64,000 bases of DNA from a virus. This document shows positions 1 to 23,506 of this stretch, one piece after another (the stretch's first letter is position 1; each line of letters opens with the position of its first letter). The stretch spans positions 32,001 through 96,000 of the IMG/VR virus record IMGVR_UViG_3300042691_008788. The stretch is one strand, 5' to 3'. Position numbers and translations under genes: made by a program. A model generated the notes under the pieces. It was not told where the DNA came from, did not search any database, and saw only the letters and a program-made list of their open reading frames with translations.

Positions 1-1728
1 GGCATTGAGGACAAGACGGGAAAGATCCACAAGGTCAGGGTGGACTTCCATCAACTTGGTGGAGAGAGACACGAAGGAGAGATGCCACGACATGAGGTGT
101 TGAGTAGATTGAGGAAGGGAGACATCAGCGTTGCAAAGGCTGGTCGTCTTCGCAAGGCGGTTGCATCTGGTGATACAGAACTAGCACATGAACTCATGCC
201 AAAGCACATGAATAAGCCAAAGTACTTCGGCATGATCAAGTCCGCACAATCGAAGATAGCAAAGCCAAAGAAGAAGGTGGTGAAAGAAGGCTACATGTCC
301 TTCGCTGAGTTTGTTTCGGAGGACATCGAACTGATTCCCGTAACTAGAGATAGAGATGCAGGGAAGCCAAGGAAAGCAGAGGTTGTCCACAAGGACTATG
401 GAACGAAGACCTACTCATCCGACAAGGTTGTGACTCGAAAGAATCATGGAGAGATTCATCCTGGTTACGAACTTCATCAGCACTCCGTCGAGATGGACAA
501 CAACAGACCGAGTGGACCACAAAGGATTGTGAAGCACAAGTTCACGATAGTACACAAGGCAAGCGGAGATATCGCTGGAGAAATGCACGCTTGGGGTGGC
601 AAACTTCATCCGAAGAAGGGCGTTGTGTTTGGGTCAAAAGGCAAGGCACTGAAGGTATCTCATCTTGAGATGCATCCCGAACACGGCAGCAAGAAGGTCG
701 GAGCATCTTTGCCCGTTGAAATGTACAGACATCTTCATAGAAGAGGACATGCCATTCAATCTGATTCAGTACAGAGCCACGGTGGAGCGCATGTGTGGAA
801 CACAATGCGTAATGATCGTGAACTCAAGAAGCACATGATGATCCATGATGATGACAAGGTAGACACGAAGCAAAAACATGCATTTCAGACTCGCGCATAT
901 AGAAGACCAGAGAGACACATTTGGCACCAGTTCAGCAGAAGTTGGAGTGGCGGAAGAGATAATCCATCAAAGGTAGAACCAGAGTATGGAGTTGATCCCG
1001 ACTTCAAGAGGACATTGATTCTTGCTGGTAAGAAGCGCAAGAAGAAGCCCGCTGTTGTATCGGAAGACATTGAGATGGCTGATATTCTTGTAAAGCCGAA
1101 GAGCGGTGGACTGAGTCCACGAAACTTTGAGAAGATGGTCGCACACAAAGGGTTGAAGCCAAAGAGATCTGGTAAGATTGCAAAGGGATACACTCTCTAC
1201 ACATCGGTTGATGCAACACATCCCGAATTTGAAGATCACCATATCGTGCATGATGCAACAGGACATGTTGCGGGTGAAGTTTCGACTCGCACATCTGGCA
1301 ACGACCACACGGTCATTCACACAGATGTTCATGGAGATCACACACAGAAAGTAATAGGAAAATCCCTTGCCGTGCTTGCATATAAGCACCTTGCAAAGAA
1401 GAAGGGAAACCTACACAGCAGCAGTCTACAGAGTCCTGGTGGTGCATCCATATGGAATAGACTTCGCAAGAATCCAAAGATGAAGGGTCAGGTCTTTCAT
1501 AAGATGAGAGGACAGGCAGAGGTTCCTGCACACGATCTACCCGATAAGAAGATATGGGCAACAGATGTCAAAGGTGGAATGTCATCATCCAACAAAGATA
1601 TTCCAAAGCCTCTTCCTCCATCGAAGCATCATGCCGCAGAGCATGAAAATGTGATAGGATCGCGTCTTGTGATCAGACCCATAAAAAAGACTAAATATAA
1701 AAGTACCAAAACAGGAGAAACAAAATGA
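1..1728 (+). CDS. 5'-truncated multidomain putative virion-internal polyprotein: C-terminal end of a cytidylyltransferase-like domain, then two GNAT-like domains
   Basis: Frame is open from base 1. AGRLRKAVASGDTELAHELMP resembles the SASKMR..A..GD end of T4-like phage cytidyltransferases. Two homologous blocks (LPVEMYRHL..IQSDSVQSHGGAHVW / LAVLAYKHL..LHSSSLQSPGGASIW) resemble phage GNAT domains, each preceded by VSE|DIE. Confidence 0.6.
   Translation, partial: GIEDKTGKIHKVRVDFHQLGGERHEGEMPRHEVLSRLRKGDISVAKAGRLRKAVASGDTELAHELMPKHMNKPKYFGMIKSAQSKIAKPKKKVVKEGYMSFAEFVSEDIELIPVTRDRDAGKPRKAEVVHKDYGTKTYSSDKVVTRKNHGEIHPGYELHQHSVEMDNNRPSGPQRIVKHKFTIVHKASGDIAGEMHAWGGKLHPKKGVVFGSKGKALKVSHLEMHPEHGSKKVGASLPVEMYRHLHRRGHAIQSDSVQSHGGAHVWNTMRNDRELKKHMMIHDDDKVDTKQKHAFQTRAYRRPERHIWHQFSRSWSGGRDNPSKVEPEYGVDPDFKRTLILAGKKRKKKPAVVSEDIEMADILVKPKSGGLSPRNFEKMVAHKGLKPKRSGKIAKGYTLYTSVDATHPEFEDHHIVHDATGHVAGEVSTRTSGNDHTVIHTDVHGDHTQKVIGKSLAVLAYKHLAKKKGNLHSSSLQSPGGASIWNRLRKNPKMKGQVFHKMRGQAEVPAHDLPDKKIWATDVKGGMSSSNKDIPKPLPPSKHHAAEHENVIGSRLVIRPIKKTKYKSTKTGETK
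1691..1697 (+). promoter_or_regulatory. T4-like late promoter motif (CTAAATA)
   Basis: ~30 nt upstream of the ATG at 1725; variant of T4 TATAAATA that recurs before many genes. Confidence 0.55.
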
Positions 1729-2525
1729 GCATTCCAAACATTCAGCAGCAACTTTACCTCAAGAAAGCACTCAATGAGGACACCGATGGGATGTTCGATC
1801 ATCCAACTCTTGATGAAGGTTCCTATGTTCACTCAAAGAAGCAACTCAAGAAAGCCGTCAAGGGTTCAAAGAGAGAGATTGTCAAGGCACTCAAGCGCGG
1901 CAACAAGAAAGATGCTGAGTTTTGGATGCAGAACAAGAAGGACGCAGAGTCACAAATGTCTGAATCCATTGCTGAAGGTTCTTATGTTCACTCAAAGAAC
2001 CAACTAAAGAAGGCTGTCAAAGGTTCAAAGAGAGAGATTGTCAAGGCAATGAAGCGCGGCAACAAGAAGGATGCAGAGTTTTGGATGCAGAACAAAAAGG
2101 ATGCAGAATCACAAATGTCTGAATCCATTACTGAAGGTTTGCTCCGCAGATACAACGAACTCACAGAAGGATCACGCGGTCTTGCTCGTTATCAGCGCAT
2201 CGTAAAGGCATTGACAAAAAAGGCCGCTTCTTTGAAATCCACCCCAAAGCCAACAACAATGGCTGGTGATGAAGCACTTCATAAGAGAACTATGAATAAA
2301 CTAAAACTTTCAAAGGGTCAGCAGTTGCGTGACCGTGTGCAGATTTCTCGCGAACGCATGAGGGCTGGATTGGCTCCAAGCATTCCATCAAAGACCGTGA
2401 GTCCCGCTCAAGGTGATGAGACAGGAACATGGAGAATCAAGTCTGGTGCTGATCGCGCGCCAAAAACAGTTTTAAAGTATCGCGCAGCATCGGCAGCAAA
2501 AGCAGCAAAAGGAAAGGCCAAGTAA
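1725..2525 (+). CDS. Basic hypothetical protein, putative internal head polyprotein with a 53-aa tandem repeat
   Basis: GGAG RBS; Lys/Arg-rich segments separated by LDE|G, IAE|G, ITE|G, LTE|G. Confidence 0.75.
   Translation: MSIPNIQQQLYLKKALNEDTDGMFDHPTLDEGSYVHSKKQLKKAVKGSKREIVKALKRGNKKDAEFWMQNKKDAESQMSESIAEGSYVHSKNQLKKAVKGSKREIVKAMKRGNKKDAEFWMQNKKDAESQMSESITEGLLRRYNELTEGSRGLARYQRIVKALTKKAASLKSTPKPTTMAGDEALHKRTMNKLKLSKGQQLRDRVQISRERMRAGLAPSIPSKTVSPAQGDETGTWRIKSGADRAPKTVLKYRAASAAKAAKGKAK
1815..2138 (+). repeat. 159-bp direct tandem repeat (2 copies)
   Basis: GAAGGT recurs at 1815, 1974 and 2133; the GSYVHSK...ESQMSES units are nearly identical. Confidence 0.95.
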
Positions 2526-3554
2526 ATGAACAATCAGTTTCTACAACATCTCAAGTCCATCACTCCTCAAGGCAAGGCCGAGGAGAAGAAGATATTCATC
2601 TCAGCAGAACGACTCAAGGAGTTGGAGGCAGAAGAACTTGATGAGGCCACACGCTCCAAGTATCTAAAGGTATATGGTAAGCACAAGGTTGGAACTGATA
2701 CAGGCGCACTTGAACTTGCAAGAAAGAAGCACGATGCTGCCATCATGCGTCGCGGTGGTGCTTCTCCAGAGGCAGTTAAGAGGGGACTAGCCAATGAATA
2801 TGGCATAGACCACGAAGTTGATATGGCAAAGTATAGATTTGCAAACAAGAGGGCTAAACACTTAGATAAAGCGATTGCCAATTATAATAGAAAAGCAAGC
2901 AAGTCAACGAACGAGGCCGTATCAACCAATGACCCAAACAGAGGTCGCATGGGAAGAGCAAAGCCAAAACTACCACCTGGTCTAGATCCTTATGATATGT
3001 ACAGCAAGGGTGAGATTCAACCATATGGTGGCAAACTTCAGAAGAGACTTCGCTCAATGAGTGCAGAAGATCGCAAGAGATACTATCAGCAGATCGGCAT
3101 TCGTTCACGCGCTGCAAGCCGTAGTGGAAAGACTCAGAGATTGTTTCCTATGACTGAAGGCGTTAAGAGGATGCGTAGGCTTCGCTCTGCGCGATTTGGG
3201 CAACAGGGAACCACGAAGGAACTTGATGCTGCCTATGATAAGGAACTCTCCAAGGTGAGCGCAAGCCGTCTTCGTCGTGGCGGTGCGCCAAAGCAGACCG
3301 TTCGTGCGTTCTTCACAGACAAGCCAACCACAAAGGCAGCGGACAAGGCATATTCGAAGTTCTCCAAGGATGCAATGAACAAGGCAAGTGCCAAGGGCAA
3401 GAAGATCTTCGAAGCAACTAAGGTTGGCAAGAAGATCAAGCGCAAGATTGTGAAAGCAAAAAACAGGCTTCGCAACATCGGAAGAAGAGTAGTAGATACA
3501 CTTGGAACTCCCCAAGATAATACAGATTACATGCTCACTGGTAGGAAGTTCTAA
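2526..3554 (+). CDS. Basic hypothetical protein, putative internal head polyprotein
   Basis: Four basic segments bounded by LDE|A, TNE|A, MTE|G, IFE|A. Confidence 0.75.
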   Translation: MNNQFLQHLKSITPQGKAEEKKIFISAERLKELEAEELDEATRSKYLKVYGKHKVGTDTGALELARKKHDAAIMRRGGASPEAVKRGLANEYGIDHEVDMAKYRFANKRAKHLDKAIANYNRKASKSTNEAVSTNDPNRGRMGRAKPKLPPGLDPYDMYSKGEIQPYGGKLQKRLRSMSAEDRKRYYQQIGIRSRAASRSGKTQRLFPMTEGVKRMRRLRSARFGQQGTTKELDAAYDKELSKVSASRLRRGGAPKQTVRAFFTDKPTTKAADKAYSKFSKDAMNKASAKGKKIFEATKVGKKIKRKIVKAKNRLRNIGRRVVDTLGTPQDNTDYMLTGRKF

Positions 3555-3566
3555 AAGGAAATAACA

Positions 3567-5009
3567 ATGAAGACTAGAGATCTTAAATCACTATCAGAAA
3601 CAATCGCATCCGTGGTCGATCCAATCGATAAGGAACGCGCACAGATGCTACAGGAAGGCTTTCTCAACTCGTTGACCGAGAAGGCTCGTCAGATCGCTTC
3701 CAAGGAAATGGAAGATGAAGGCGAAGAGGAAGAAGACGAGGACGAGATGGAGGATGAAGGCGAAGAGGAAGAGAAGCCAACCTCCAAGAAGAAAAAGGCC
3801 AAGATGGATGAGGCTTATCCAACGACTTATGTACCAGAACCAAAGCCAGTAAAGCCAGAACCAAAGCCAGTAAAGCCAAAGAAGAAATTGAGTGATTATA
3901 GATCAAAGCCTTATCCAAAACTCACCAATGAGGACATCGAACTTGCAGAGAAGGCAGCACCTGGCTATGAGGATTGGGCATCCGATCCCAAGGTCAAGGC
4001 ATCCTTCAAGAAGCAATACGGCAAGCGTTGGAAGGAAGTCATGTACGGACACTCATGGAACCTTGCCAAGCAGGAAAACAAGTTGGGTTTGGATGAAGAA
4101 GAACAGTTGGATGAATTGACTGATGCCCTTATTAGCAGGGCAAGGAACAAGGCAATCCTACGAGGTCCAGAGAAGCGTGGTTTTGTTAAGAAAGCAACAA
4201 AGAGACTCCAATCAAGCGGAGCAATGGCTCCACGACCAAGCACTTCGACGGAACGCGATTCACAGTGGAACAAAGCATTCAATGAAGAAACTGATTTGGA
4301 TGAAGCAGTATCCGCCAAGCGTATGCGTATCATCCGCAAGTATGTCAAGGGAAATAAGAGAGTTCCAGAGCATCTGAAGGACTACATGGAGAGATCCTTC
4401 AAGAAGAAGAGGTTCAAGGACAAGCAACTCTCCGATGGTAGAGGAGCAGTCGGTGCATTGGAGACTCGTATGCGTAGGAAGTCTGCTGCACTAAGAGCAA
4501 GAGGCATTGAACCAAAGGGTGTTGCACCAGGATACCTTGAAGAAGGCATCCTCAAGAAACTTCGCAGGGCCAAGGGAGCAGCATATGCTGCCATGCAAAA
4601 GGGAGAGGGAGACAAGTATGCCAAACTCCATGGAGTGGCATCTGGACTTGAGTCAAGGTACAAGGCAAGTATGGCTCGTCGTGGTGAAGCAACACAAGAG
4701 ACAGTAAGGGGTGCGGGAAGCCGCCTTTCCAAGAAGGGCAAGTATACTCTCAAGGCAGGAAAACTAGCCACACAGCATGACAATGCAATCTCCCGTTTCC
4801 GCACGAAGGTTCGCACGGCAGAGTTGTTTGGCAGGGAAACCGATAAGGGAGCAAAGAGAGAGCGTCAACAGGCACAGGCCAAGTTCCGCATGGATGCTCG
4901 TCACGGAGATTTTGGTTATAATGACATAATTACTCCCGAGATCAAGAAGGCTGGCCTGAGAGCGCGTTACAACTACGAAAAGAGATACGGTAGACTAAAG
5001 GGAAAGTAA
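3567..5009 (+). CDS. Hypothetical protein with acidic tract and basic modules, putative internal head polyprotein
   Basis: Acidic EMEDEGEEEE x2 and PEPKPVK x2; a KASFKKQYGKRWKEVMY module of the kind seen in T4-like phage head proteins; LQE|G, MDE|A, LAE|K, LDE|L, LDE|A, LEE|G junctions. Confidence 0.75.
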   Translation: MKTRDLKSLSETIASVVDPIDKERAQMLQEGFLNSLTEKARQIASKEMEDEGEEEEDEDEMEDEGEEEEKPTSKKKKAKMDEAYPTTYVPEPKPVKPEPKPVKPKKKLSDYRSKPYPKLTNEDIELAEKAAPGYEDWASDPKVKASFKKQYGKRWKEVMYGHSWNLAKQENKLGLDEEEQLDELTDALISRARNKAILRGPEKRGFVKKATKRLQSSGAMAPRPSTSTERDSQWNKAFNEETDLDEAVSAKRMRIIRKYVKGNKRVPEHLKDYMERSFKKKRFKDKQLSDGRGAVGALETRMRRKSAALRARGIEPKGVAPGYLEEGILKKLRRAKGAAYAAMQKGEGDKYAKLHGVASGLESRYKASMARRGEATQETVRGAGSRLSKKGKYTLKAGKLATQHDNAISRFRTKVRTAELFGRETDKGAKRERQQAQAKFRMDARHGDFGYNDIITPEIKKAGLRARYNYEKRYGRLKGK

Positions 5010-5025
5010 TAAAAGGAGATAGATC

Positions 5026-5142
5026 ATGGCAAAAGTGAAGACACCCGCAAGACCACGCATTCGGGAACTAAAGCATCAGTTGTACATCAAGGCATTGAAC
5101 CGCAAGAAGAACCTTGATGGGTGCAATGGTAGAAAATACTAA
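5026..5142 (+). CDS. 38-aa basic small protein (absent from ORF track)
   Basis: AAGGAGA RBS; MAKVKTPARPRIRELKHQLYIKALNRKKNLDGCNGRKY-TAA. Confidence 0.65.
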   Translation: MAKVKTPARPRIRELKHQLYIKALNRKKNLDGCNGRKY

Positions 5143-5145
5143 ATA
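5139..5145 (+). promoter_or_regulatory. Late promoter motif CTAAATA
   Basis: Overlaps the upstream stop codon and precedes ORF 5218. Confidence 0.55.
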
Positions 5146-5217
5146 TTCAAACACGCACTGATATTCTAGAACCTATCAGCGCACTCACATAGTTTCGAAA
5201 CTACGAAAGGTAAGAAA

Positions 5218-6204
5218 ATGGCAATCAATAGAGACGCATACAAGTCACTCGTAGAGTCAGTCAATGAGGCTGTCTCTGCACCATCAGTGGGTGCATCAAA
5301 GGGTGCAGCCCGTGTAAGAGGCGGAAGAACTTCCTCGACTGCATCATCCAAGCCATCGAATCTCCAATGGGGTTCATCGGCAATCGGTGGAGCAATGAAC
5401 GCAACTGAACTTGCACAATGGCTTGCATCACAGCAAGGAAGTGGAAAGCAAGGCCCATCAGTCGGCGTTGCTGACACAGCAATGGGTGTTGCGAAGGGAT
5501 CGGCAGCAAAGAACCTCTCCAGCGTATCTGGAAGAGGTGGCTCAAACACACAGCGTGCAGCAGCATCATCTTCTGGGTGGGGTGGCTCTGGTGTCTACGG
5601 TGCAAAGAATGCAGAAGATCTTGCCCGTATCCTAAATCAAATGCAGAATGATGGGCCATCTGTTTCGACGGGTGCATCAAAGGGTGGCATGAAGTCACGA
5701 AACAATCCACTCTCAAGTCGCAAGCCAGGATCAACGAGTTCATCTAAGCCAGCAGCAAAGAAGCCAACCGTTTCCGTTGCTGATGTTCAAGAAGCACTTG
5801 ATATCCTTGCAGAGGCTCAACTAAACGAGTGGCCGATCAATATTGGTGGCCGCACTGCAAACAATGCATCTGAACTTGCACAGATCCTAAACTCAATGCA
5901 GAATTCAGGAAAGCCATCGGGTTCAACTCCATCTGTTTCTAAGGGAGTTGCTGGTGCTGCCCCAAGAGGAAACCTCCTATCAAACCGTAGACCAGGTACA
6001 ACTACAACGGCAAAGCCAGCACCAAAGGCTCCAACAGTTGGAGTTGGTGGCATAGGAGCAATGTCTGAAGAATGGGACATCCTTGACGAGATCCTCGCAG
6101 AAGGTCTTGAACTCTACGGGGAAGAAGGACTCGCAGAGATCCTTGCTCACTTCGCAGAGACTGGCGAGATGTCCGAAGAACTCGCTGATCTTCTTGGCGA
6201 ATAA
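5218..6204 (+). CDS. Low-complexity Gly/Ser/Ala-rich protein with three NAxxLAxxL repeats and an acidic C-terminal helix region
   Basis: AMNATELAQWL, AKNAEDLARIL, ANNASELAQIL; VNE|A, LNE|W, MSE|E junctions. Confidence 0.75.
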   Translation: MAINRDAYKSLVESVNEAVSAPSVGASKGAARVRGGRTSSTASSKPSNLQWGSSAIGGAMNATELAQWLASQQGSGKQGPSVGVADTAMGVAKGSAAKNLSSVSGRGGSNTQRAAASSSGWGGSGVYGAKNAEDLARILNQMQNDGPSVSTGASKGGMKSRNNPLSSRKPGSTSSSKPAAKKPTVSVADVQEALDILAEAQLNEWPINIGGRTANNASELAQILNSMQNSGKPSGSTPSVSKGVAGAAPRGNLLSNRRPGTTTTAKPAPKAPTVGVGGIGAMSEEWDILDEILAEGLELYGEEGLAEILAHFAETGEMSEELADLLGE

Positions 6205-6229
6205 TCAAACTTAGTTAAACTTAGTCACA

Positions 6230-6260
6230 AGGGGAGAGGGTAAAACCTCTCCCCTGTTAT
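6230..6260 (+). terminator. Rho-independent terminator hairpin
   Basis: AGGGGAGAGG-gtaaaa-CCTCTCCCCT followed by a T-rich tract, just after the 6204 stop. Confidence 0.75.
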
Positions 6261-6263
6261 TTC

Positions 6264-6270
6264 ATAAATA
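6264..6270 (+). promoter_or_regulatory. Late promoter motif ATAAATA
   Basis: Directly after the terminator and before ORF 6275. Confidence 0.65.
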
Positions 6271-6274
6271 CATC

Positions 6275-6841
6275 ATGGAGGATTATCTTGGAATGGCCGA
6301 TTCTTTAACATCAAGCATCACTAGAGTTCTCATGGAGAGTCATGATACGGACTTGTCTGGCAAGTTCTCATTATTCACTCTTTATTCGGACAACAGTTCA
6401 GTTCTTCACATCTTCGAAGACGAGGAAACCTTTGAAGCCATGAAATACAAGTTTTCATCAGATGACAACATCAAGCGTCTCGGTGCCTCAAGGTTGCCAG
6501 AGAACACTACCTTCAAGAAACTTTCAGAATCAATAGAGCGCAAGTTCGATGTGCCAAGAGAAACAATCTCAGTCCGCACACACGATCCCATGCCCAAGGA
6601 ACAGCCACAGCCCAAGAAGGTTGTGAATGAAATGAGGAAGGCTCCCATGCAGCCCAAGAAGGGTTCCGTGGTAGAGAGCGTCCTCAAGGGCAGAGAAAGA
6701 TTCTCAAACCAACCAAGACAGCAGATGCCTCAGATGGAGGCACCCAAGGAAGAGCCTACAATCAACTCCTTCCGCCCCGCAACGAACCAAAAAATAGATC
6801 TGTCCAAGTTGAACAGCGGCGACAGACCAATGCTAGGATGA
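6275..6841 (+). CDS. Hypothetical protein
   Basis: Long ORF after a late motif; real start may be the second ATG (6293), which follows GGAGG. Confidence 0.7.
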   Translation: MEDYLGMADSLTSSITRVLMESHDTDLSGKFSLFTLYSDNSSVLHIFEDEETFEAMKYKFSSDDNIKRLGASRLPENTTFKKLSESIERKFDVPRETISVRTHDPMPKEQPQPKKVVNEMRKAPMQPKKGSVVESVLKGRERFSNQPRQQMPQMEAPKEEPTINSFRPATNQKIDLSKLNSGDRPMLG

Positions 6842-6844
6842 ACC

Positions 6845-7318
6845 ATGGCCGAAAAGAAAGATAAAGAATCAAAAGAGAAGTCATCATCCAACGAGAAAAC
6901 ATATCTCGTCAAGTACAGGCTCAAGGGCGAGAAGGGAAGGACTCCTCGCAAGATCACTGTACAGGCATTGAACCAAGCCGATGCCAAGAAGACTGCAATA
7001 GCAACCATTCCTGGTGCAGAAGTTGTCGGTGGGGCAAAGGAACTCAGCGAAGGTGTGCTTGACTTTGCGGGTCGATTGGGTAAGTTTGCAAGTAGATGCG
7101 CTGGTAGACTCTGCCATGCCTATTCAAGTAGCCCAATCAGGGACAAGGGAAGCATCTCCACCACAAGAAAGATATTCACAAGAGAACTAGCCCACATGGC
7201 TGGAAACAAACTCATGGATATTGGTGGAGAAGATGCAAGACCAATGTCAAAGATGCGATTCTCAAGTGGCAGAAAGAAGAAAAAGACAACTACTAGAAAA
7301 AAGAAACGATCACCATAA
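6845..7318 (+). CDS. Basic hypothetical protein
   Basis: Contiguous ORF; LSE|G junction; poly-Lys C-terminus. Confidence 0.7.
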   Translation: MAEKKDKESKEKSSSNEKTYLVKYRLKGEKGRTPRKITVQALNQADAKKTAIATIPGAEVVGGAKELSEGVLDFAGRLGKFASRCAGRLCHAYSSSPIRDKGSISTTRKIFTRELAHMAGNKLMDIGGEDARPMSKMRFSSGRKKKKTTTRKKKRSP

Positions 7319-7333
7319 TACTTGAGGTGAGTA

Positions 7334-8485
7334 ATGGCATTTGAATACAAACCAAAAGACTTTGGATTTTCTGGTAAAGAAATCGCATTTGAGCAGTATG
7401 TAAAAACTGTTAAGTCTGTAGTGAATAAACTATCAAGCAAAGATCATCCTGTAAGATACATGATGTCACTTGTTGAACATGCCAATGGCGAGATAAGCAA
7501 TGCAGATCTTAAAAAAGTCTGCGATGCAACTAAACTCAGCACCGCACAAAAAAACAATATACAAAAATACTTTGCTGAAGTTGTTGGTCCTATTTGGTCA
7601 ACGCAGAACAATGTATTTGGTGATACGCCAAATCCCAAGAAATGTTTTGTGTTTCATCCATCTGCGGCAAATACTCCATTGACTGATTATGAAGTTCGTA
7701 TCGTTGGTAGCGATGGTAAAAAAACAGCACATGCTAGACAAAGTACAAAGAAAAAACTAAACGAAGCAAACTCTGCTATGCGTTCGATGAGAATATCGGC
7801 AAAGTCTGGCACCACTACCAACACAGTAAAAGCAAAAGACATACTCAGTGTTCTTCGTGAAAGAAATGGTATAAACGAAAAAAACTGGAAGGGGTCTGTG
7901 GAAGAACAATTACTTGAGGTTATTGCAGACTCAAGCACTTCAGTTGGTCCATTGAGTGGTGCCATATTACTCACTCAGAAGAAAGTAATTACCAACTATA
8001 CTCCTACCACAACTCTACAAAAACTTGTGGATACTTTGTCTTCGGGCGGAACAGCAAAGACATTACTAGGAAAGTCTGTTGATACTGTGCTAAATGACAA
8101 AGAAGTTCAGTCTCTAAAGCCAATAGTAGAGGCAGAAAAATCACTGAATCACTTCATAAACAACAAAGGAAAAGTAGTTACTCATTCAAACAAGGATTCA
8201 TTGATTGTTGGATATATCTGCGTTGCAGTAGAAAGATATCTGCAAAAGATATCACAAAAATCAGATAAACTCGAACTTGATGGGATTTTTTCAGATGCTA
8301 TTGGTGGCATCATAAACTATGTTGAGTTCACCATTGATTCTTCCAATTTTCCAAAATGGAAATATTATGGAATGAAAGAATTGAACAACATAGATGGTTA
8401 CTTGCGTTCAAAGAATAGTCTATCAACTCGTTTGGCAAAGCGAGGAATGGCCGACTCACTTGGATTCCAACCTGTATTCAAATAA
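7334..8485 (+). CDS. Putative PD-(D/E)xK restriction-endonuclease-like protein
   Basis: PSAANTPLTDY...ISAKSG catalytic-like motif; GAGGTG RBS; more AT-rich than neighbours. Confidence 0.5.
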   Translation: MAFEYKPKDFGFSGKEIAFEQYVKTVKSVVNKLSSKDHPVRYMMSLVEHANGEISNADLKKVCDATKLSTAQKNNIQKYFAEVVGPIWSTQNNVFGDTPNPKKCFVFHPSAANTPLTDYEVRIVGSDGKKTAHARQSTKKKLNEANSAMRSMRISAKSGTTTNTVKAKDILSVLRERNGINEKNWKGSVEEQLLEVIADSSTSVGPLSGAILLTQKKVITNYTPTTTLQKLVDTLSSGGTAKTLLGKSVDTVLNDKEVQSLKPIVEAEKSLNHFINNKGKVVTHSNKDSLIVGYICVAVERYLQKISQKSDKLELDGIFSDAIGGIINYVEFTIDSSNFPKWKYYGMKELNNIDGYLRSKNSLSTRLAKRGMADSLGFQPVFK

Positions 8486-8498
8486 CCTAAATATTTGC

Positions 8499-9074
8499 AT
8501 GGGTCATGAACTACACATCATCGCGGGAATCGACTACTCGTTGTGTGGTCCTTGCATCTGCGTCTTTGAAGGTGGTGCAAAGTTCTCGTTCGATGACTGC
8601 TGCTTCTACTTCCTGACAGATACCAAGAAGTATGCAAAGGTTTTTCTTGGAAACATCCACGGAGAGTTGTTCTCTGAGTGGGAACAAGACATGGAGCGGT
8701 ATCAGAGCATCGCTGATTGGGCTGTGGATATCCTCAAGAATGTCAAGCAAGTCGCACTTGAGGGATATGCATACTCAGCCACGGGAAAGGTCTTCCACAT
8801 CGCTGAGAACACGGGAGTCCTAAAGTACAAGTTGTTCAGTGAAGGCATTCCCGTGACTATCATACCACCAACAGAAGTGAAGAAGTTCGGTAGTGGCAAG
8901 GGCAATGCTGACAAGACCGCTATGCATGAGGCATTTCTAAAGGAAACGGGAATCGACCTCAAGGCCATCATGACACCCGACAAGAGAGATGTTGCATCCC
9001 CCGTGTCTGATATCGTTGATGCCTACTACATCTGCAAGAAGATGCACGGCGAGTTGATCCTATCGTCTATTTGA
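8499..9074 (+). CDS. RuvC-like Holliday junction resolvase
   Basis: IAGIDYS, VALEGY, KKFGSGKGNADK and DIVDAY motifs; CTAAATA at 8487 just upstream of ATG 8499. Confidence 0.8.
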   Translation: MGHELHIIAGIDYSLCGPCICVFEGGAKFSFDDCCFYFLTDTKKYAKVFLGNIHGELFSEWEQDMERYQSIADWAVDILKNVKQVALEGYAYSATGKVFHIAENTGVLKYKLFSEGIPVTIIPPTEVKKFGSGKGNADKTAMHEAFLKETGIDLKAIMTPDKRDVASPVSDIVDAYYICKKMHGELILSSI

Positions 9075-9945
9075 CGAGTTTGGATCTAATCTCCTTGACG
9101 ATCTTCTGAGTCGATGCCTTCTGAACCTTACGAGCAATACCATCATCACCGAAGATCTTGTTCTTGACCTCTTCGGGAACCTCGGTCTTGATGCTCTCAA
9201 GCAACTGCACATTGTCGGCAACTGCTTCCTCTGTCTTCTTGGAGCGGAAGATGAGATATCCAACTGAGCCAGCGGATACAAGGAATCCTATGATGAAGAC
9301 CACAAGACCAACGGTTGCGATCTCCTGATAGTAGTATTGATTTGCGGCAGCAAGACCAACAGATACGAATCCAGCGCATAGAATCATACCACCGATTATT
9401 CTGTGGAAGTATGCGACGATCATGCCAGCGACGATCATGGCAAAGCCAACCATCCAGAAGATGCGAACGATCTTCTGAATCTCTGCTGTGGAAGCAGCCA
9501 CAAGATCATCGTATTTCTTCTTCCAATCGCTGTTGGTTTTTTCAAGTTCTTGGATCTGATTAAGCAATGGCTGAGTCTTCTCTGCCACTATCTCTTGCTT
9601 GACCATCTCTGTTTCTTTCTGTATTGAGATGGTTGCATTCTCGACCTTGTTGCTCTCGACAACGATCTTAGATGCCTCTTCGGTTATCTTTGGATCATCC
9701 GTGCTGTCCTTGATGATCGTTGCTGATTCACTTATAGCAACCGCAGATTGCTTGATTTGCTCTGTTTCGGCAGCAATGTTCTCAGTAGCAGTCTCAACCT
9801 TCTCAATGTTTTGATACACGGTTGTTGCAACTGGTGTGGTTGGCTTCTCTATCTTTGGTGTAGATGGTGTAGATGTACACTTGACACCCATCATCATGAC
9901 TCCAAGTGTAAATATCGCGGCCACTCGCATCATCATGTTGTTCAT
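9067..9945 (-). CDS. Membrane protein: signal/lipobox-like N-terminus, coiled coil, ~3 TM helices
   Basis: Hydrophobic N-terminus ending GVKC; heptad-rich middle; IFWMVGFAMIVAGMIVAYF, IIGGMILCAGFVSVGLAAA, IATVGLVVFIIGFLVSAGSVGYLIF. Confidence 0.75.
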   Translation of the reverse strand: MNNMMMRVAAIFTLGVMMMGVKCTSTPSTPKIEKPTTPVATTVYQNIEKVETATENIAAETEQIKQSAVAISESATIIKDSTDDPKITEEASKIVVESNKVENATISIQKETEMVKQEIVAEKTQPLLNQIQELEKTNSDWKKKYDDLVAASTAEIQKIVRIFWMVGFAMIVAGMIVAYFHRIIGGMILCAGFVSVGLAAANQYYYQEIATVGLVVFIIGFLVSAGSVGYLIFRSKKTEEAVADNVQLLESIKTEVPEEVKNKIFGDDGIARKVQKASTQKIVKEIRSKLVK

Positions 9946-9946
9946 A

Positions 9947-10966
9947 TCATCGCACCATCGACTTTCTTTTCTTCAAAGACTTTGCTCTCTTGCGGTTTGC
10001 TGCTGCTCTCTTCTTCTTGGACTTGCGAGCAGACTTCTTTGCTTGTCTTGACCTCTTGGCTTTCTCAGCCCCACCCATCTTGATGCAAGCCTTGCCACCA
10101 CGCTTTGCCAACTTCTGTCCCTCTGGACACTTGAAGACGATGCGCTTCTTTCCACCACGAATGACGATCTTGCGCTTTGCACCCTCGGCAAGCATCTCAA
10201 GTTCCTCGACGGGAATCAAATCAACTACCTGATCCATGGTGATGTCATCAACGCCATGAATGATGTAGTGTGTCTCCGTGAGCGAGGTGTTCGTGATGTC
10301 GAGTGACAACTTCATCTCATTCACTGGTTCGGACTGCTGTCCCTTGGCGAACCTTGGATTCTCAAAGTTTTTCTTGGGGAATCCCTTCGGACCCTGACGA
10401 ACCAACTTGACCTGTGTGGCATTCTTACCCTTGCCAAGCGTGGATACGAGTCCCTCATGCTCCTCGCCATCATGTGTCTTTATGTCGAACTGATGCTCAT
10501 GCCCACGGAACTCATCAAGCATGTGGTGAGTTGCCTGAGCGATGTGATGGTGTGCCTTGAACAATGCCTTGAAGTGGTGGACATTGTCATCGATGTCCTT
10601 GTGCAGTTCACCGAGTTTCTTTGCCCTACCCTTCTCGCTCTTTGTGGTTCTGTCAACCCACTTCTTTGCATGAGCCTTCAACCCTTCGACGCTGCGGAGT
10701 CCCGTTGTCCTTGCTGCGGTGTTGGAGTAGTTCCTCACCATGTCATGCATCTGCGAGTGAACACCTTCTCCACTTGCAAGCCTACGGGAGAACTCATGCA
10801 CTTCTGGAGTCAGGTGCTTCTGTGCGGCGGCAAGATGCTTGGTGATCTGCCTGTCGCGATTCGCTGCAAGGGACAACTTGATCTTCTTGTTGATGGCAAG
10901 ATCGGGAGCATGGACTCCTTCACCCTGTATCTGACTCACATCTGGATGGCTTGAGACTTTCTTCAT
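9947..10966 (-). CDS. C-terminal half of a DUF6267-like (ligase/nucleotidyltransferase-like) protein fused to a gp68-like basic prohead-core domain
   Basis: HEGLV...VKLVRQ..F.K.NF motifs; after LAE|G: KRKIVIRGGKK..KCPEG...KRAKSLKKRKSM, like T4 gp68-family proteins. Confidence 0.6.
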   Translation of the reverse strand: MKKVSSHPDVSQIQGEGVHAPDLAINKKIKLSLAANRDRQITKHLAAAQKHLTPEVHEFSRRLASGEGVHSQMHDMVRNYSNTAARTTGLRSVEGLKAHAKKWVDRTTKSEKGRAKKLGELHKDIDDNVHHFKALFKAHHHIAQATHHMLDEFRGHEHQFDIKTHDGEEHEGLVSTLGKGKNATQVKLVRQGPKGFPKKNFENPRFAKGQQSEPVNEMKLSLDITNTSLTETHYIIHGVDDITMDQVVDLIPVEELEMLAEGAKRKIVIRGGKKRIVFKCPEGQKLAKRGGKACIKMGGAEKAKRSRQAKKSARKSKKKRAAANRKRAKSLKKRKSMVR

Positions 10967-11721
10967 GCCTTTGTTCCTGTCTTGGGAAGTTTATACTGCG
11001 AGTGAGCGGCAATGGTCAATGTCGCACCAGGCTTTGTCTTGTAGGTGATCGTATTTGGCTTTGCTGTTTCCGATTTGGTATCGGTATGATGGACGAGATC
11101 AGCCTGAAATGCATGACCAGGCTCGATGTTCATCTTCTTGACATGACGCAGAGCGGGTATGAGGTCACGGACATAGTGTTCCTTGCCTGTCTTATGAATG
11201 TCTTCCTCGCTTGTGAAGGTGGCATCCTCATTGCCGTGCTTGGAGCGGACAAAATGAGTTCCATCATGATGGCGACCTATCACGATGCTGTGACCGCCAT
11301 CGACCTTGAGGGATGGTTGATGTCCCTTGGTGATCTTGCCCTTGAACCTCTGATGCATGGCAGTCATGTGCTTCATGGCAACCGATGGATCACCATGGTA
11401 GAGATAGTCCGCGACATGTTCAAGATGTCCCGTGGTGGCTTTCTTGCTCCTCTTGAGTGCCATCTCCATGAGATCGGACTTTTGCTTTGGCTTCCTGCGC
11501 CAGATGCCTCTACCAAACTCTCTTTGCTTGTACTTGGGGGAGACAGGCTCGCCATCCGAAACCATGGCAAGACCAGGAGCAGAGGCCGTGTTTGCAACCT
11601 CTTCATCAAAGAACATCTCAAGGATATCCATCTTGTCTTGGTCGAGCATTGCCTCTGCAACAAGAAGCCGTGCCTCGGCTTCGATGCTCTCAACAAGGAA
11701 TCTTTCGTAACTCTTGCTCAT
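10963..11721 (-). CDS. N-terminal half of a DUF6267-like protein with a capsid-targeting-like leader
   Basis: MSKSYERFLVE start; GHLEHVAD, LKVDGG.SIVIG, FQADL, PNTITY motifs. Confidence 0.6.
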   Translation of the reverse strand: MSKSYERFLVESIEAEARLLVAEAMLDQDKMDILEMFFDEEVANTASAPGLAMVSDGEPVSPKYKQREFGRGIWRRKPKQKSDLMEMALKRSKKATTGHLEHVADYLYHGDPSVAMKHMTAMHQRFKGKITKGHQPSLKVDGGHSIVIGRHHDGTHFVRSKHGNEDATFTSEEDIHKTGKEHYVRDLIPALRHVKKMNIEPGHAFQADLVHHTDTKSETAKPNTITYKTKPGATLTIAAHSQYKLPKTGTKA

Positions 11722-12095
11722 ATTTTCCTCAGTTCCTCCAGCAGTCCCTGTTCCATGGGAATGGCCGCTAGATCTGCTTCTGGTATCTCAAGGTGAAGAA
11801 CATTCAGAAAATATAGAAATGTCTTCAATCTCGGGTAAAACTTCTCTTCCATTCTGTAGAAGAGTATTCTATTTCCCTCTTCTATTCCAAACACATTCGT
11901 CATTATGATGAGATGATTCAGTATCAACCTGTTTCTCTGTCCAAGATCGCCATCTTCACGATTCATCAGCCTCTTTATGTACTTGATCCTGTCTAAATCC
12001 TCATAGAACTCCTCAAGGGAGCCGCATTGAGGATTGTCATAATGTTGAAGGGCGAAGGACAGGAAGTCCTCATCACAAAGAGGCTTTTCACACAT
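11718..12095 (-). CDS. Conserved T4-like phage hypothetical protein
   Basis: FALQHYDNPQC..EEFYEDL.RIKYIKRL..RLILNHLII..NVFG signature common in large T4-like phages. Confidence 0.8.
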   Translation of the reverse strand: MCEKPLCDEDFLSFALQHYDNPQCGSLEEFYEDLDRIKYIKRLMNREDGDLGQRNRLILNHLIIMTNVFGIEEGNRILFYRMEEKFYPRLKTFLYFLNVLHLEIPEADLAAIPMEQGLLEELRKI

Positions 12096-12101
12096 GATGG
12101 A

Positions 12102-12617
12102 TTAGTCGTGCTTGCCTTTTGAAGATGCCATATAAAGTTCGGCATCGATCATGTAGAGTCCACCAGGAACCATCGATGTCTTGATCTTCAACTTGCCGTG
12201 CATACGAGAGCGGAGGAAGATCTCGTCATCGATGTACTGATCACCAGTGACTGGATGATCGCTTGTCTTTCTTCCATACTGATACACATTGTATGTTCCG
12301 TCTCTTCCATTCAACATGAAGTTTTCGTCTCCGTCATCGACATGAAGACCGATTGTCTGCAACTGAAGAAAGAGGCGATTCAATCTGTCGCTTGGATCAA
12401 GATGGGTACCAGATACGAATCTCTTGATGAATGCATTGATGACTTGCATATTCTCTGGCTTCTCGACATAGAACAAGGCGCGGTCATCGATAGCAGACCT
12501 GTGGTTTGTGTTGTATGTGGACTCAAGAAGAGCCTCAATAAGGGTCTGATTGCGACTCTTGTCCAAGGTATTTGATGCTACATCTGCCAACGAGTCTCTG
12601 CGCGTGAATGGGTTCAT
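12102..12617 (-). CDS. Hypothetical protein (start MNPFTRRD)
   Basis: GGAG RBS before ATG 12617; TATACATA motif at 12643-12650; LLE|S junction. Confidence 0.7.
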   Translation of the reverse strand: MNPFTRRDSLADVASNTLDKSRNQTLIEALLESTYNTNHRSAIDDRALFYVEKPENMQVINAFIKRFVSGTHLDPSDRLNRLFLQLQTIGLHVDDGDENFMLNGRDGTYNVYQYGRKTSDHPVTGDQYIDDEIFLRSRMHGKLKIKTSMVPGGLYMIDAELYMASSKGKHD

Positions 12618-12650
12618 TTGAATCTCCGTGAATTTATAAAAATATGTATA

Positions 12651-12679
12651 AAAGAAAACGGTGGCATTGCTGCCACCGT
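12651..12679 (-). terminator. Rho-independent terminator
   Basis: ACGGTGGCA-gcaa-TGCCACCGT followed by TTTCTTTT on the minus strand. Confidence 0.85.
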
Positions 12680-12708
12680 ATCCCTGATCCTTGCTTGTGG
12701 TCAGTTGT

Positions 12709-12822
12709 TCACTTGTTCCAAGGAAGTTTGGTCGAAACCCACTTCCAGAGTGGCGCACCGATGAGCGCACCAGCAACGAACATTAGAACACTCCACCAAG
12801 CCGTACCTAGAAAATCTGCCAT
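12709..12822 (-). CDS. 37-aa single-TM membrane peptide (absent from ORF track)
   Basis: AAAGGAGA RBS; MADFLGTAWWSVLMFVAGALIGAPLWKWVSTKLPWNK-TGA; own terminator. Confidence 0.8.
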   Translation of the reverse strand: MADFLGTAWWSVLMFVAGALIGAPLWKWVSTKLPWNK

Positions 12823-12926
12823 TTGTTTCTCCTTTGTAAATAGAAACCCTATACATCTATATATGGTTGGATTTCGGGATTTCCTAAATCGACCCCATGC
12901 TAAATATGATTAGGAGGAATCTCTAT

Positions 12927-13151
12927 ATGAATATGCAGTACACAGAATCATTCAATATCCCAACTGGAGGATGGACAGGCGGGGCAAGTGGTATTCTAAA
13001 TGGAACAACCGCTGGCATCACCGCAGACATTCGTCTATGGCGCGACAATTCCGCCACAGCAGCAAGACGAGTCAGCCTTGCACCAGGCGAGATTCTACCA
13101 GTAAAGGTTCGCTATGTCAATCACAACTCGACGGTGACTGGATTCAACTGA
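12927..13151 (+). CDS. Small hypothetical (possibly virion) protein
   Basis: CTAAATA at 12900; AGGAGG RBS; MNMQYTESF...ILPVKVRYV. Confidence 0.7.
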   Translation: MNMQYTESFNIPTGGWTGGASGILNGTTAGITADIRLWRDNSATAARRVSLAPGEILPVKVRYVNHNSTVTGFN

Positions 13152-13798
13152 TACCACTGCTTGTACAACTGAATCGCTCTAAGAAGCCCAGGGACACCCT
13201 CCGTGGGCTTCTTTATAAATTCTTGTAGAGTTCCTGTCTCACAGGCAATCAGGATCACAACCTGTTCGATCTTGCGTCCCGTGAGTTCCTGAAACATCAA
13301 GGAATATGCCGTGGCTTGCTGAAAGTAGTTCTTGATCCCACTCTCGTACTTCTCGCGAGTGGAACCCTTGAAGTCAACCACTGATAGTTTCCCATCGTAG
13401 TCGCAGATGCAGTCCACTCGACCCGCAAGACCCACGCTCTCACTCCACATGTGCTGTTCAAGTGCATAGACATTGTCGATCTTGGATTCAACATGGCTCT
13501 TGAGCATTTCATAGAGTTCATTAACAGCAGAATGTTCGCAAAGAGCAACATCCTCGTTCTTGAGGAGATGTTCCATCATTGAGTGAATGAGGTTTCCGCG
13601 ATCAACAACTCTCTGTGCCTCGCGTGGATTCGATCTTTTCCATATCTCAATTCCGTCCTTGCCTTCGAATCCCGTGACCGTGGTGACGGATGGTAGATGC
13701 TTTCCCGATGGCGTAATGTAGACTCTTCCGTTCTTTGTTTCAAGAACTTTTAGTTCGGGGAGGTTGAGTTGGATTGGTTGGTAGTTATATTGCTTCAA
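13121..13798 (-). CDS. PD-(D/E)xK exonuclease (Cas4/RecB-like) of T4-like phages
   Basis: PSVTTV, RGNLIH, AGRVDC, VVDFKGS, YFQQATAY. Confidence 0.9.
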   Translation of the reverse strand: MKQYNYQPIQLNLPELKVLETKNGRVYITPSGKHLPSVTTVTGFEGKDGIEIWKRSNPREAQRVVDRGNLIHSMMEHLLKNEDVALCEHSAVNELYEMLKSHVESKIDNVYALEQHMWSESVGLAGRVDCICDYDGKLSVVDFKGSTREKYESGIKNYFQQATAYSLMFQELTGRKIEQVVILIACETGTLQEFIKKPTEGVPGLLRAIQLYKQWYQLNPVTVEL

Positions 13799-14101
13799 TC
13801 ATTTGTCCATTTCACATGGAGGAGTAGGAAAGTCTCTGCTCCTCTTTGATATATCCATCATCTGACCTGGTGTACGAACCTTGGTCTTCTTATCTACATC
13901 CTTCTTCTCGGAAAGCACTTCCTTGAAGTGGGCCACAGTCTCACTAACGGACATGTTATTGTAACGCGCTTCTCTTATGATGTCAACATAGTTCTGATTA
14001 GAAACTATTGCTTGCCACGGAAGATTCATTCTATCGGCACAACGACGAGCAAACGAGTAATCAGACTCATGCTTCTCTGTCAGTTTCTTCTTTCGTGCCA
14101 T
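13799..14101 (-). CDS. Hypothetical protein
   Basis: ORF contiguous with neighbours. Confidence 0.65.
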   Translation of the reverse strand: MARKKKLTEKHESDYSFARRCADRMNLPWQAIVSNQNYVDIIREARYNNMSVSETVAHFKEVLSEKKDVDKKTKVRTPGQMMDISKRSRDFPTPPCEMDK

Positions 14102-14270
14102 TTGATTTCTTCCTTTTTGGCATCTTTGGATTTAACAAAGATTTTTTATCTTTCTCCGTCAACCCAAAGAATCCGATATCCATGAGCAACTTGATTCTTT
14201 CTTTCTTCAACTGATCGTCAGAAGCAAGTATGGTCTTCAATGATTCAATGAGTTGCTTGTCTTTCTTCAT
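14067..14270 (-). CDS. Small hypothetical protein (start MKKDKQ)
   Basis: CTAAATA (minus, 14276-14282) immediately upstream; the longer ORF-track version runs through an RNA structure and a terminator. Confidence 0.55.
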   Translation of the reverse strand: MKKDKQLIESLKTILASDDQLKKERIKLLMDIGFFGLTEKDKKSLLNPKMPKRKKSNGTKEETDREA

Positions 14271-14302
14271 GCCAGTATTTAGGGTAAGAGATCTTTGTGG
14301 AT

Positions 14303-14337
14303 AAAAAAACTGCCTCTTGCGTTTAGACAAGAGGCAG
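14303..14337 (-). terminator. Rho-independent terminator
   Basis: CTGCCTCTTG-tctaaacg-CAAGAGGCAG-TTTTTTT. Confidence 0.9.
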
Positions 14338-14448
14338 CGGTAGCGAAGTTCCTTGTTCGGGTGAGTTACCTCCCGACGCGCAGTGAATAGCGTAACGACG
14401 CTTGCACTGTCCCCACGCCGACTCAGTGAGAAGACTGGGGCGAACACC
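14303..14448 (-). ncRNA. Candidate structured non-coding RNA downstream of gene 32
   Basis: GC-rich; three hairpins plus a possible closing helix; TATACATA motif just upstream and a terminator at the 3' end. Confidence 0.6.
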
Positions 14449-14462
14449 AATATGTATAAAAA

Positions 14463-15404
14463 TCACTCGTTTGCGAGTCGCTTGAAGTAGTCAAGAGCAT
14501 CATCATCCTCATCGGAATCCTCTGTCTTGCTCTTTGGCTTTGCTTCCCGACCAGGTGACTTCGCTTCAGCCGCAGGGAACTTCGGGGTGAACTTCTTCTG
14601 AGGAGTTTCCTCTTCATCCTCCGAAAGATCCATGTTCTCTGCCTTTGCAGTAGATGAACCATTGATGACAGATTGGAACTTTGTCTTTAGTTCACCATAC
14701 TGCTTGAACTGATCTGGCTTGACAAAGTCCTGTAGCGGGTACTCCTTGCGCCACAGAGCCTCAAGAGCCTTCTCATCGCCCTCAAGGAGAGGAGATGCAG
14801 CAGAGAACTCGGACTTGTCATAGTTGCGATATCCATCAACATTGCGAATCTTGATCTTGAAATTCGCACCCTGCCAGAAGTCGAATGGATTCACGGGATC
14901 CTCGTCCTTGTACTGCGGATTCATCTTGTCGTTGATCTTATCAAAGATCTTCTTGCCATAGCGATAGAGGAAGATCTTTCCGTTGTTGGACGGATTCACA
15001 GGGTCATCAATGACGAGAATGTTGCTGATGTATGACAACTTCCGCTTGCGGTCACGGGCGATGTTCTTGTCATCATCATTGCCACTGTTCCAAAGTTCGT
15101 TATTGGCTTCGCAGACAGGACACTTCTGTCCGATGGTGGTGGGACAATTCTCAATGTACCAACCCCCCTTTGACTGAAAGCCGTGGCTGAAGACACGAAC
15201 CCAAGGAAGATCTTCGCTTGGGGGAGCAGGAAGGAAGCGGATCACCGCATAGCCATTTCCCGTCTTGTCCACTTCTGGTTGCCACATGCGGTCATCCTTG
15301 TAGGAGTTCTCACCCCCACCCTTCGTGACCTTCTCAAGTTCCTTTGCAAGCAGATTGCTTGCATTCTTGGAATTCTTCTTCATACTTGCGAAATCGTTTG
15401 CCAT
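14463..15404 (-). CDS. 32: Single-stranded DNA-binding protein gp32
   Basis: DDRMWQP.VDKTGNGYAVIRFLPAP, WYIENCPTT.G..CPVCE, NPFDFWQGANFK.KIR, acidic tail DALDYFKRLANE. Confidence 0.97.
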   Translation of the reverse strand: MANDFASMKKNSKNASNLLAKELEKVTKGGGENSYKDDRMWQPEVDKTGNGYAVIRFLPAPPSEDLPWVRVFSHGFQSKGGWYIENCPTTIGQKCPVCEANNELWNSGNDDDKNIARDRKRKLSYISNILVIDDPVNPSNNGKIFLYRYGKKIFDKINDKMNPQYKDEDPVNPFDFWQGANFKIKIRNVDGYRNYDKSEFSAASPLLEGDEKALEALWRKEYPLQDFVKPDQFKQYGELKTKFQSVINGSSTAKAENMDLSEDEEETPQKKFTPKFPAAEAKSPGREAKPKSKTEDSDEDDDALDYFKRLANE

Positions 15405-22840: not shown

Positions 22841-23506
22841 TTAGCGGCGACGACGGCCAACAAGACCCGCCATGCCAAGAAGAGCGATTGCTCCTGGTGA
22901 TGGAGCAGAAAGAACAAATGCCCCACCCGCTGTGCTTCCAATCGACGGTGGAAGCGGATGCCAAGAACCCCATCCACCAGGTCCGAATGGACTGGTCTGC
23001 CAGAATCCCGCTGTGTTCTCTCCCTGCGACCATACGAACTGATCCCCAGCAGCATCATTGAGAAGAACACCGATGTTCATGAAATATGAACCCGCTGCAA
23101 TCTCAAATGCAAGAGGAACATAGAACTCATATACAGGTTGACCAAAGAAGTTTTCATCTCCAGTCGGTGTTGCGGTGATATTTGTCATGCTGATCTTGGT
23201 TGAGAAAACCTGATCGCTGAAATCATCATTCCAAACAACGACCTGAAATGCATAGAAGTTTGTGATTCCCTGATCATTGAAACCATTGGACGAACCCCAC
23301 CAACGAAGCGAGGATGTCGTATAGGAATCCTCAAGGGAGAATGCCTGTGCGCCACTTTGTGCATAGGTATATGTTCCCTTTGAATTGAATGCGTCAGAAT
23401 AGAATCCAACCGTGTCTGCCACTGGATTGTTCACAACTACAAATTCTGCCTTTGCTACCGAGCCACACATCACGGCTGCTACCAAACCAACAATAAAATT
23501 CTTCAT
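22841..23506 (-). CDS. Secreted PEP-CTERM-type (exosortase-targeted) surface protein
   Basis: Sec signal MKNFIVGLVAAVMCGSVAKA|E; C-terminal APSPG-AIALLGMAGLVG-RRRR. Confidence 0.85.
   Translation of the reverse strand: MKNFIVGLVAAVMCGSVAKAEFVVVNNPVADTVGFYSDAFNSKGTYTYAQSGAQAFSLEDSYTTSSLRWWGSSNGFNDQGITNFYAFQVVVWNDDFSDQVFSTKISMTNITATPTGDENFFGQPVYEFYVPLAFEIAAGSYFMNIGVLLNDAAGDQFVWSQGENTAGFWQTSPFGPGGWGSWHPLPPSIGSTAGGAFVLSAPSPGAIALLGMAGLVGRRRR

Follow-up and report, generated by a model that had tools for sequence, protein, structure and literature searches.

The minus strand immediately downstream of gene 32 in this phage raises a simple question: what is the function of a short segment that carries a promoter motif, several hairpins and a terminator and yet has no credible ORF? 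The window analyzed here is a 64,000-nt stretch of the 157-kb record of a T4-like phage from freshwater (genome 86% complete; the assignment rests on gp32, gp33, RuvC, and exonuclease genes matched by PHROGs). Eleven tRNA genes, one of them a tRNA-Ile with a TAT anticodon, lie beyond the window (G000:C1:5766-18865). A first-pass annotation had proposed a novel multi-stem non-coding RNA, and every motif that it quoted was recovered at its place on the minus strand: the promoter motif (14458-14451), three hairpins, a GUUC/GAAC closing helix, and the terminator. The RNA unit spans approximately 14448-14303 on the minus strand, about 145 nt including the terminator, with a body of 112 nt; from the position of the promoter motif, we infer a start site near 14448-14446. 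The features of the locus are as follows, with 23S rRNA positions in E. coli numbering throughout.

14463..15404, minus strand: gp32 single-stranded DNA-binding protein gene, a neighbor outside the element (phrog_224, E 1e-116).
14451..14458, minus strand: late-type (gp55-type) promoter motif, TATACATA variant; T4 late-type, enriched upstream of genes in the same genome.
14430..14450, minus strand: 5' leader, non-complementary to 23S rRNA; supplies the 5' strands of P1 (14445-14442) and P2 (14440-14436).
14339..14429, minus strand: antisense block, reverse complement of 23S rRNA nt 1929-2013.
14381..14409, minus strand: hairpin P3, with a loop (14397-14394) that lies opposite 23S 1977-1980 and follows the host alleles in its variation.
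14357..14376, minus strand: hairpin P4; mirrors 23S H71, with a variable inserted loop.
14339..14356, minus strand: 3' tail, complement of 23S 1929-1946 (H70); predicted to be mostly single-stranded; candidate seed or toehold.
14303..14338, minus strand: intrinsic terminator, 12-bp stem plus T7; one-directional.
13121..13798, minus strand: Cas4-like PD-(D/E)XK exonuclease gene, about 0.5 kb downstream of the RNA (phrog_298, PF12705).

Both transcription signals appear to be genuine. ATAAATA and ATACATA are among the top enriched upstream 7-mers of the phage genome, with 13 of 19 and 5 of 14 sites, respectively, located within 70 nt of a gene start. This motif class is the one most enriched before phage genes; it also precedes replication genes, so the timing of RNA expression is uncertain. 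A sigma-70 region 4 family search of the genome did not detect gp55. The terminator stem (14338-14310) is followed by seven T residues (14309-14303) and is predicted on the minus strand only. With promoter and terminator on one strand, the element constitutes an independent transcription unit at the sequence level. At 14465-14478 (minus strand), overlapping the promoter motif and the stop codon of gp32, a weak hairpin of 5 bp followed by a T-rich tail may give the gene 32 mRNA and the RNA some degree of separation. In four freshwater or aquatic studies, the element is covered by RNA-library contigs, which carry no information on strand, ends, or level and may be derived from DNA. Several bridge into gene 32, including one identical contig that runs from inside gene 32 to 14341, and none lies downstream of the terminator, although such contigs cannot show transcript ends.

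Known classes of element do not account for the segment. A single ORF covers the whole body (TTG start, 14450-14067, 127 aa), and the homologues described below do not conserve it, so a coding role was rejected, in line with the earlier judgment that no credible ORF is present. A search of the window against Rfam 15 gave no match at the gathering threshold and only chance matches (E 2-9) at E ≤ 10, which upholds the claim of novelty, and ARAGORN detected neither a tRNA nor a tmRNA. A box C/D or H/ACA guide was also rejected because alignment A3 contains no such conserved motifs and snoRNA models scored at chance level. The possibility of a switch, raised from an alternative pairing with CGAACA, was abandoned: this motif is not conserved (other copies read CGCACA or CCGACA), the neighboring genes vary, and the alternative stem does not overlap the terminator. 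Likewise, the GNRA-type loop singled out in the third hairpin is a GUAA tetraloop limited to the window genome or its nearest kin.

Comparison with rRNA was more informative. The plus strand at 14339-14430 aligned with E. coli 23S rRNA 1929-2013 at a score of 76, compared with a mean of 26.7 for shuffled sequences (sd 3.1, maximum 44, n=1000); thus, the strand between promoter and terminator is antisense to 23S rRNA. This is the sole rRNA-like stretch in the 157-kb genome (E 2e-8, permissive scoring). Default blastn against E. coli genomes missed the match, which permissive scoring recovers, and this explains how such elements escape annotation. From the standard 23S map, of which H71 and the H61 core were checked in this analysis, we take nt 1929-2013 to be H70, H71, and the 3' strands closing H67, H64, and H61. 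The 3' tail is a perfect 18-nt complement in the window, and the RNA departs from the complement at 1983-1986 (in nearly all homologues, where the change builds P3), at one inserted C, and in the P4 loop. Approximately 91 of the 112 body bases belong to the complement, which points to pairing with rRNA instead of the protein decoy, antitoxin mimic, or packaging/replication RNA suggested previously.

Homologues were collected through gp32 searches and through sequence patterns on three blocks, yielding 27 distinct copies in viral contigs of T4-like phages, all of which retain complementarity to 23S rRNA. A late-type promoter motif lies a few bases upstream in 26 of the 27, the remaining copy being cut by a contig end. 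Four or five variants of the motif occur and interchange among homologues (TATAAATA, CTAAATA, CATAAATA, and TATACATA), while the distance to the body is constant. The tail is followed immediately in all 27 by a strong hairpin (about -20 to -25 kcal/mol) of variable sequence. An rRNA gene fragment introduced by assembly contamination was rejected as an explanation on the basis of these diverged copies, with their common boundaries, own promoters and terminators, and phage gene context. The cultured phages in INPHARED contained no copy, only whole-rRNA records resembling contamination, and model R1 found none in 18 records of more distant gp32 relatives (fragments, 5-35% complete).

The first-pass annotation had proposed collecting homologues downstream of gene 32 in related phages; many of the copies lie elsewhere. 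The RNA sits beside other genes in L099, L249, L381-L385, L389, and L391-L394, one copy is located away from gene 32 in a phage with 57% gp32 identity, and gene 32 of L011 and L019 ends in a separate terminator ahead of the RNA. The tie to gene 32 is therefore incidental, and the many copies found away from it indicate that the RNA is a free-standing gene. The gp32 of L011 is almost identical to that of L009, yet the L011 RNA has diverged and lies behind a GIY-YIG endonuclease gene, which suggests endonuclease-driven replacement of the RNA allele. Free-standing GIY-YIG/NUMOD3-type genes were seen at L011:3940-4506, L013:4074-4586, and L391 ~13344-13856, immediately flanking the RNA gene on the opposite strand; of these, L011 is the one with a Pfam match. 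By eye, the slot after gp32 in a more distant clade seemed to hold a tRNA-like (L021) or tmRNA-like (L022, L028) element, and in some more distant phages a terminator alone; the slot seems to collect non-coding RNA genes.

The homologues also bear out the multi-stem fold with its closing helix. It is a three-hairpin junction in which P1 closes P2, P3, and P4. Over 26 homologues, 93.5% of cells are paired, compared with 34-46% when the partners are slid, and two-sided changes occur at 4 of 27 pairs, a modest level of covariation. P1 is paired in 100% of cells and includes one compensatory change (U-A to C-G in L381/L390) that also retains a G-U pair to U1940; P3 is paired in 99-100% of cells and includes an A-U/G-C switch. 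In 23 of 27 homologues, the minus strand, on which the promoter and terminator lie, has the more stable fold of the two, and one-sided helix changes yield G-U pairs on this strand. The body alone (112 nt) folds at -36.0 kcal/mol with a z score of -0.36 relative to shuffles; the terminator, not the body, accounts for the z score of -3.1 obtained with the whole segment. In the predicted ensemble, the 3' tail is only partly paired; the closing P1 is weak (4 bp) and would leave the tail, complementary to H70, partly open. The last 9 nt of the tail differ in just two of 27 homologues. An apparently invariant 18-nt tail proved to be an artifact of the search pattern, since patterns placed on other blocks gave variants at 1938, 1940, and 1943-1944. 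The changes at 1938, 1940, and 1944 still allow Watson-Crick or G-U pairing with 23S rRNA, whereas one at 1943 does not; a mismatch opposite U1943 is present in nine homologues. The earlier interpretation is thus partly supported: it was right that the locus holds an undescribed, folded phage non-coding RNA, which is also conserved; what it missed was the complementarity to 23S rRNA.

Four-fold sites in gp32 are 40-54% identical to the window, whereas the antisense part is 81-91% identical in eight out of the ten comparisons made and 63-68% in the remaining two, those with the diverged copies; at the level of sequence comparison, this shows the RNA to be under purifying selection. Unpaired bases complementary to 23S rRNA are 93% conserved versus 72% for non-complementary unpaired bases, a contrast that is inflated because some conserved positions lay in the search patterns; the columns are also not independent. 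Substitutions compatible with G-U pairing to 23S rRNA outnumbered the opposite transitions 16 to 8 overall and 7 to 2 in unambiguous blocks, a difference that is suggestive of pairing but not significant. The fold itself is built by departures from the complement (1983-1986, the inserted base, and the P4 loop), which implies that two constraints act on the RNA. Pairing with 23S rRNA is favored as the second, judging from the conserved unpaired complement, the alleles of the P3 loop, and those of L011 and L019.

These alleles also bear on the host. Natural 23S genes from a metagenome scan fit the RNA much better than E. coli 23S does, and the genes flanking the matching copies are of Phycisphaerales/Planctomycetota. 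One of them, L355, is a full-length LSU rRNA of Phycisphaerales type, with which the window RNA can form 77 Watson-Crick and two G-U pairs over 85 nt. The RNA matches L355 at bases that differ from E. coli, for example, G1938, G1962, C1963, U1967, and A1972. The calculated duplex energy is -144.5 kcal/mol with L355 and -115.6 with E. coli, compared with -36 for the RNA's own fold. Mean duplex energies were -135 over 28 Phycisphaerales-type 23S sequences and -111 over 119 other bacteria; because the former set was picked for matching, this contrast is inflated and establishes that a near-perfect natural target exists, not a blind prediction of it. In a GTDB 23S sample, base frequencies at 1938, 1962, 1972, 1979, and 1980 were set by the search pattern and are not evidence. 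The triplet reading 1979-1981 is TCA in 10, TGA in nine, and CGA in six of the 27 homologues, with a 1-nt deletion in two; the Phycisphaerales-type 23S sequences have TCA (25), TGA (7), CGA (1), and TAA (1) at the same place. Twenty-five of the 27 copies thus have, in a P3 loop left unpaired by the RNA's own fold, one of three alleles also present in the host-type 23S, and on the gp32 tree these alleles changed three times or more. At 1986-1989, the diverged L011 and L019 agree with other host alleles. In addition, the phage encodes a 221-aa PEP-CTERM-like surface protein (window 22841-23506, minus strand) that has PxPG, a transmembrane segment, and a GRRRR sorting tail at its end; it has more than 120 relatives, and the nearest bacterial cluster is of Planctomycetota. 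The host, deduced here from sequence in place of an isolate, is probably a planctomycete. Because the RNA sequence matches one bacterial lineage, it could be used as a host barcode for uncultured phages.

The complementarity could in principle be mere ancestry: a piece of rDNA captured once and then exapted as a structured RNA, for example, as a protein decoy. The conserved fold, built by the very changes that break the complement (1983-1986, the inserted C, and the P4 loop), fits such a history, and protein binding could likewise conserve unpaired bases. However, the complementarity persists despite turnover of synonymous sites and terminators, even where gp32 is only 57% identical; the loop variants coincide with host alleles through their repeated changes on the gp32 tree; and the compensatory P1 change in L381/L390 preserves the G-U pair to U1940. 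We consider this history unlikely. The reading that best accommodates the data is that a stand-alone phage RNA acts by pairing with host 23S rRNA, and we regard such pairing as likely.

How pairing would affect the host is less certain, and we hold it slightly more probable than not that the RNA blocks 50S maturation by invading nascent 23S rRNA or the pre-50S particle. The RNA would have originated as a fragment of the host 23S gene that the phage captured and inverted. Its fold would shield it from RNases while the 3' tail and loops stay exposed. The tail would seed on H70 (1929-1946), as might the loops, and pairing would then zipper along the 3' strand of domain IV. A full duplex would be feasible only on nascent 23S rRNA or the pre-50S particle, where H67-H71 are still unfolded. 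Domain IV would be kept from closing, new 50S subunits would stall, and their rRNA would probably be degraded, whereas mature 70S ribosomes, which the phage needs, would be spared. The phage would benefit from nucleotides, phosphate, and capacity no longer spent on making host ribosomes. H67-71 are highly unstable in late pre-50S intermediates, and domain IV is among the last regions to mature (PMC3737534). A synthetic antisense PNA to neighboring H69 inhibits growth of E. coli (PMC7038079), which indicates that the region is vulnerable. For the account as a whole, namely that T4-like phages of Phycisphaerales converted a captured, inverted 23S piece into an RNA that folds on its own, acts against the ribosome, co-evolves with host rRNA alleles, and captures the strand closing domain IV to block 50S assembly, we judge the chances to be even. 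T4 shuts off host transcription; if this phage does the same, little nascent 23S rRNA would be left late in infection, which argues against a block of maturation.

Pairing with 23S rRNA might instead serve counter-defense, with the RNA masking H70 from a ribotoxin, soaking up cleaved 23S rRNA, or splinting cut rRNA for repair. All of the complementarity evidence fits this equally well, working ribosomes are needed late in infection, and H70, which the tail covers, is a known toxin target, being cleaved by MazF-mt6 (10.1101/432989). Nevertheless, an 85-nt complement reaching into the buried H64 and H61 far exceeds what masking requires and would probably itself disable the subunit interface. 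Searches of the 86%-complete genome found no RtcB or Rnl2-type ligase (the search for Rnl1 lacked a working control). A protective role therefore seems improbable, about as much so as exaptation.

A function as a guide RNA directing a phage nuclease, such as the Cas4-like exonuclease, to 23S rRNA or rDNA is still less probable. The exonuclease gene is the most constant neighbor of the RNA, within about 1 kb downstream in most loci (~0.5-0.9 kb) and steadier than gene 32, and a closing helix with a long complement is a guide-like layout. The gene was, however, not seen beside the RNA in L249, L381, and L384. T4-like phages commonly carry this exonuclease gene in their core genome, so shared synteny suffices to account for its proximity elsewhere. 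No C/D, H/ACA, or CRISPR features were found in the RNA, nor an RNase III gene in the genome. Finally, the idea that the plus strand is functional as a sense 23S mimic, or that the element acts in cis at the 3' end of the gene 32 mRNA, draws on the strandless RNA-library contigs that bridge the two and on apparently sense-oriented 23S pieces in other phages, but is very improbable because no plus-strand promoter or terminator bounds the element, one-sided helix changes give G-U pairs on the minus strand, a fragment without its partner strands and with H71 disrupted would be a poor mimic, and many copies with their own promoter lie away from gene 32.

We therefore return to pairing with host 23S rRNA as the preferred reading. 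If the RNA works as proposed, it represents a new route of host takeover that could halt new ribosomes without harm to existing ones, and it would reveal which part of 23S rRNA can be invaded while the subunit is being assembled, a point of interest for antisense antibacterials and for the folding order of the 50S subunit. The target is known to the base, and the natural allele pairs are ready-made compensatory controls. The open-access literature yielded no virus-encoded RNA that targets rRNA by base-pairing, although absence there is not proof.

Other phages carry short matches to 23S rRNA. In 364-kb phage contigs, an intergenic element (L238:6017-6053, also L242) between an ATAAATA motif and a hairpin comprises a 17-nt complement of 23S 1929-1945, a 9-nt spacer, and a 9-nt complement of 1920-1928 (H69). 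Like the window RNA, it is phage-encoded and antisense to the H69-H70 junction, overlapping the target of the 3' tail; in contrast, it scores 20.6 bits with the window RNA's model and is apparently of a different sequence family, which suggests independent origins aimed at one site. Separately, a 35-nt match to 23S 1053-1087 (L11/GTPase-associated center) is common to several cultured phages (GAP32, XacN1, CBB, BF, fHe-Yen9, pEa_SNUABM, 4_4572, Milchi, and Astolliot). In Cronobacter phage GAP32 (L371:1501-1535) and Aeromonas phage 4_4572 (L372:1501-1534), it is intergenic and in the sense orientation with respect to the flanking genes; in these two it is possibly an rRNA mimic or decoy.

Judged by its features, the window RNA can be classed as a candidate trans-acting antisense sRNA that lies outside any described family and has rRNA as its putative target. 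Hfq-type sRNAs, CopA/CopT, and RNA I/RNA II are trans-acting or plasmid base-pairing small RNAs with mRNA or primer RNA targets. The phage RNA shares with them its own promoter and intrinsic terminator, a length of ~100-150 nt, a folded structure, and exposed loops or a tail that could seed an extended duplex. It differs from them in having rRNA as its putative target and in its complement, which is 85 nt long and derived from the target gene itself although a virus encodes it in trans. In archaea and eukaryotes, box C/D and H/ACA guides and U3 pair over 10-21 nt and use core proteins absent from bacteria. The likeness to these is that of a small RNA pairing with pre-rRNA during ribosome assembly, as proposed here; unlike them, the phage RNA would act in a bacterium and has neither box motifs nor an Rfam match. 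MazF-mt6 has the same target site in H70 but is a protein endoribonuclease that acts on the sense rRNA. Synthetic antisense PNAs to 23S rRNA, including helix 69, are likewise antisense to domain IV and inhibit ribosome function (PMC7038079); these are artificial and short, whereas the phage RNA is natural and self-folding and covers 1929-2013.
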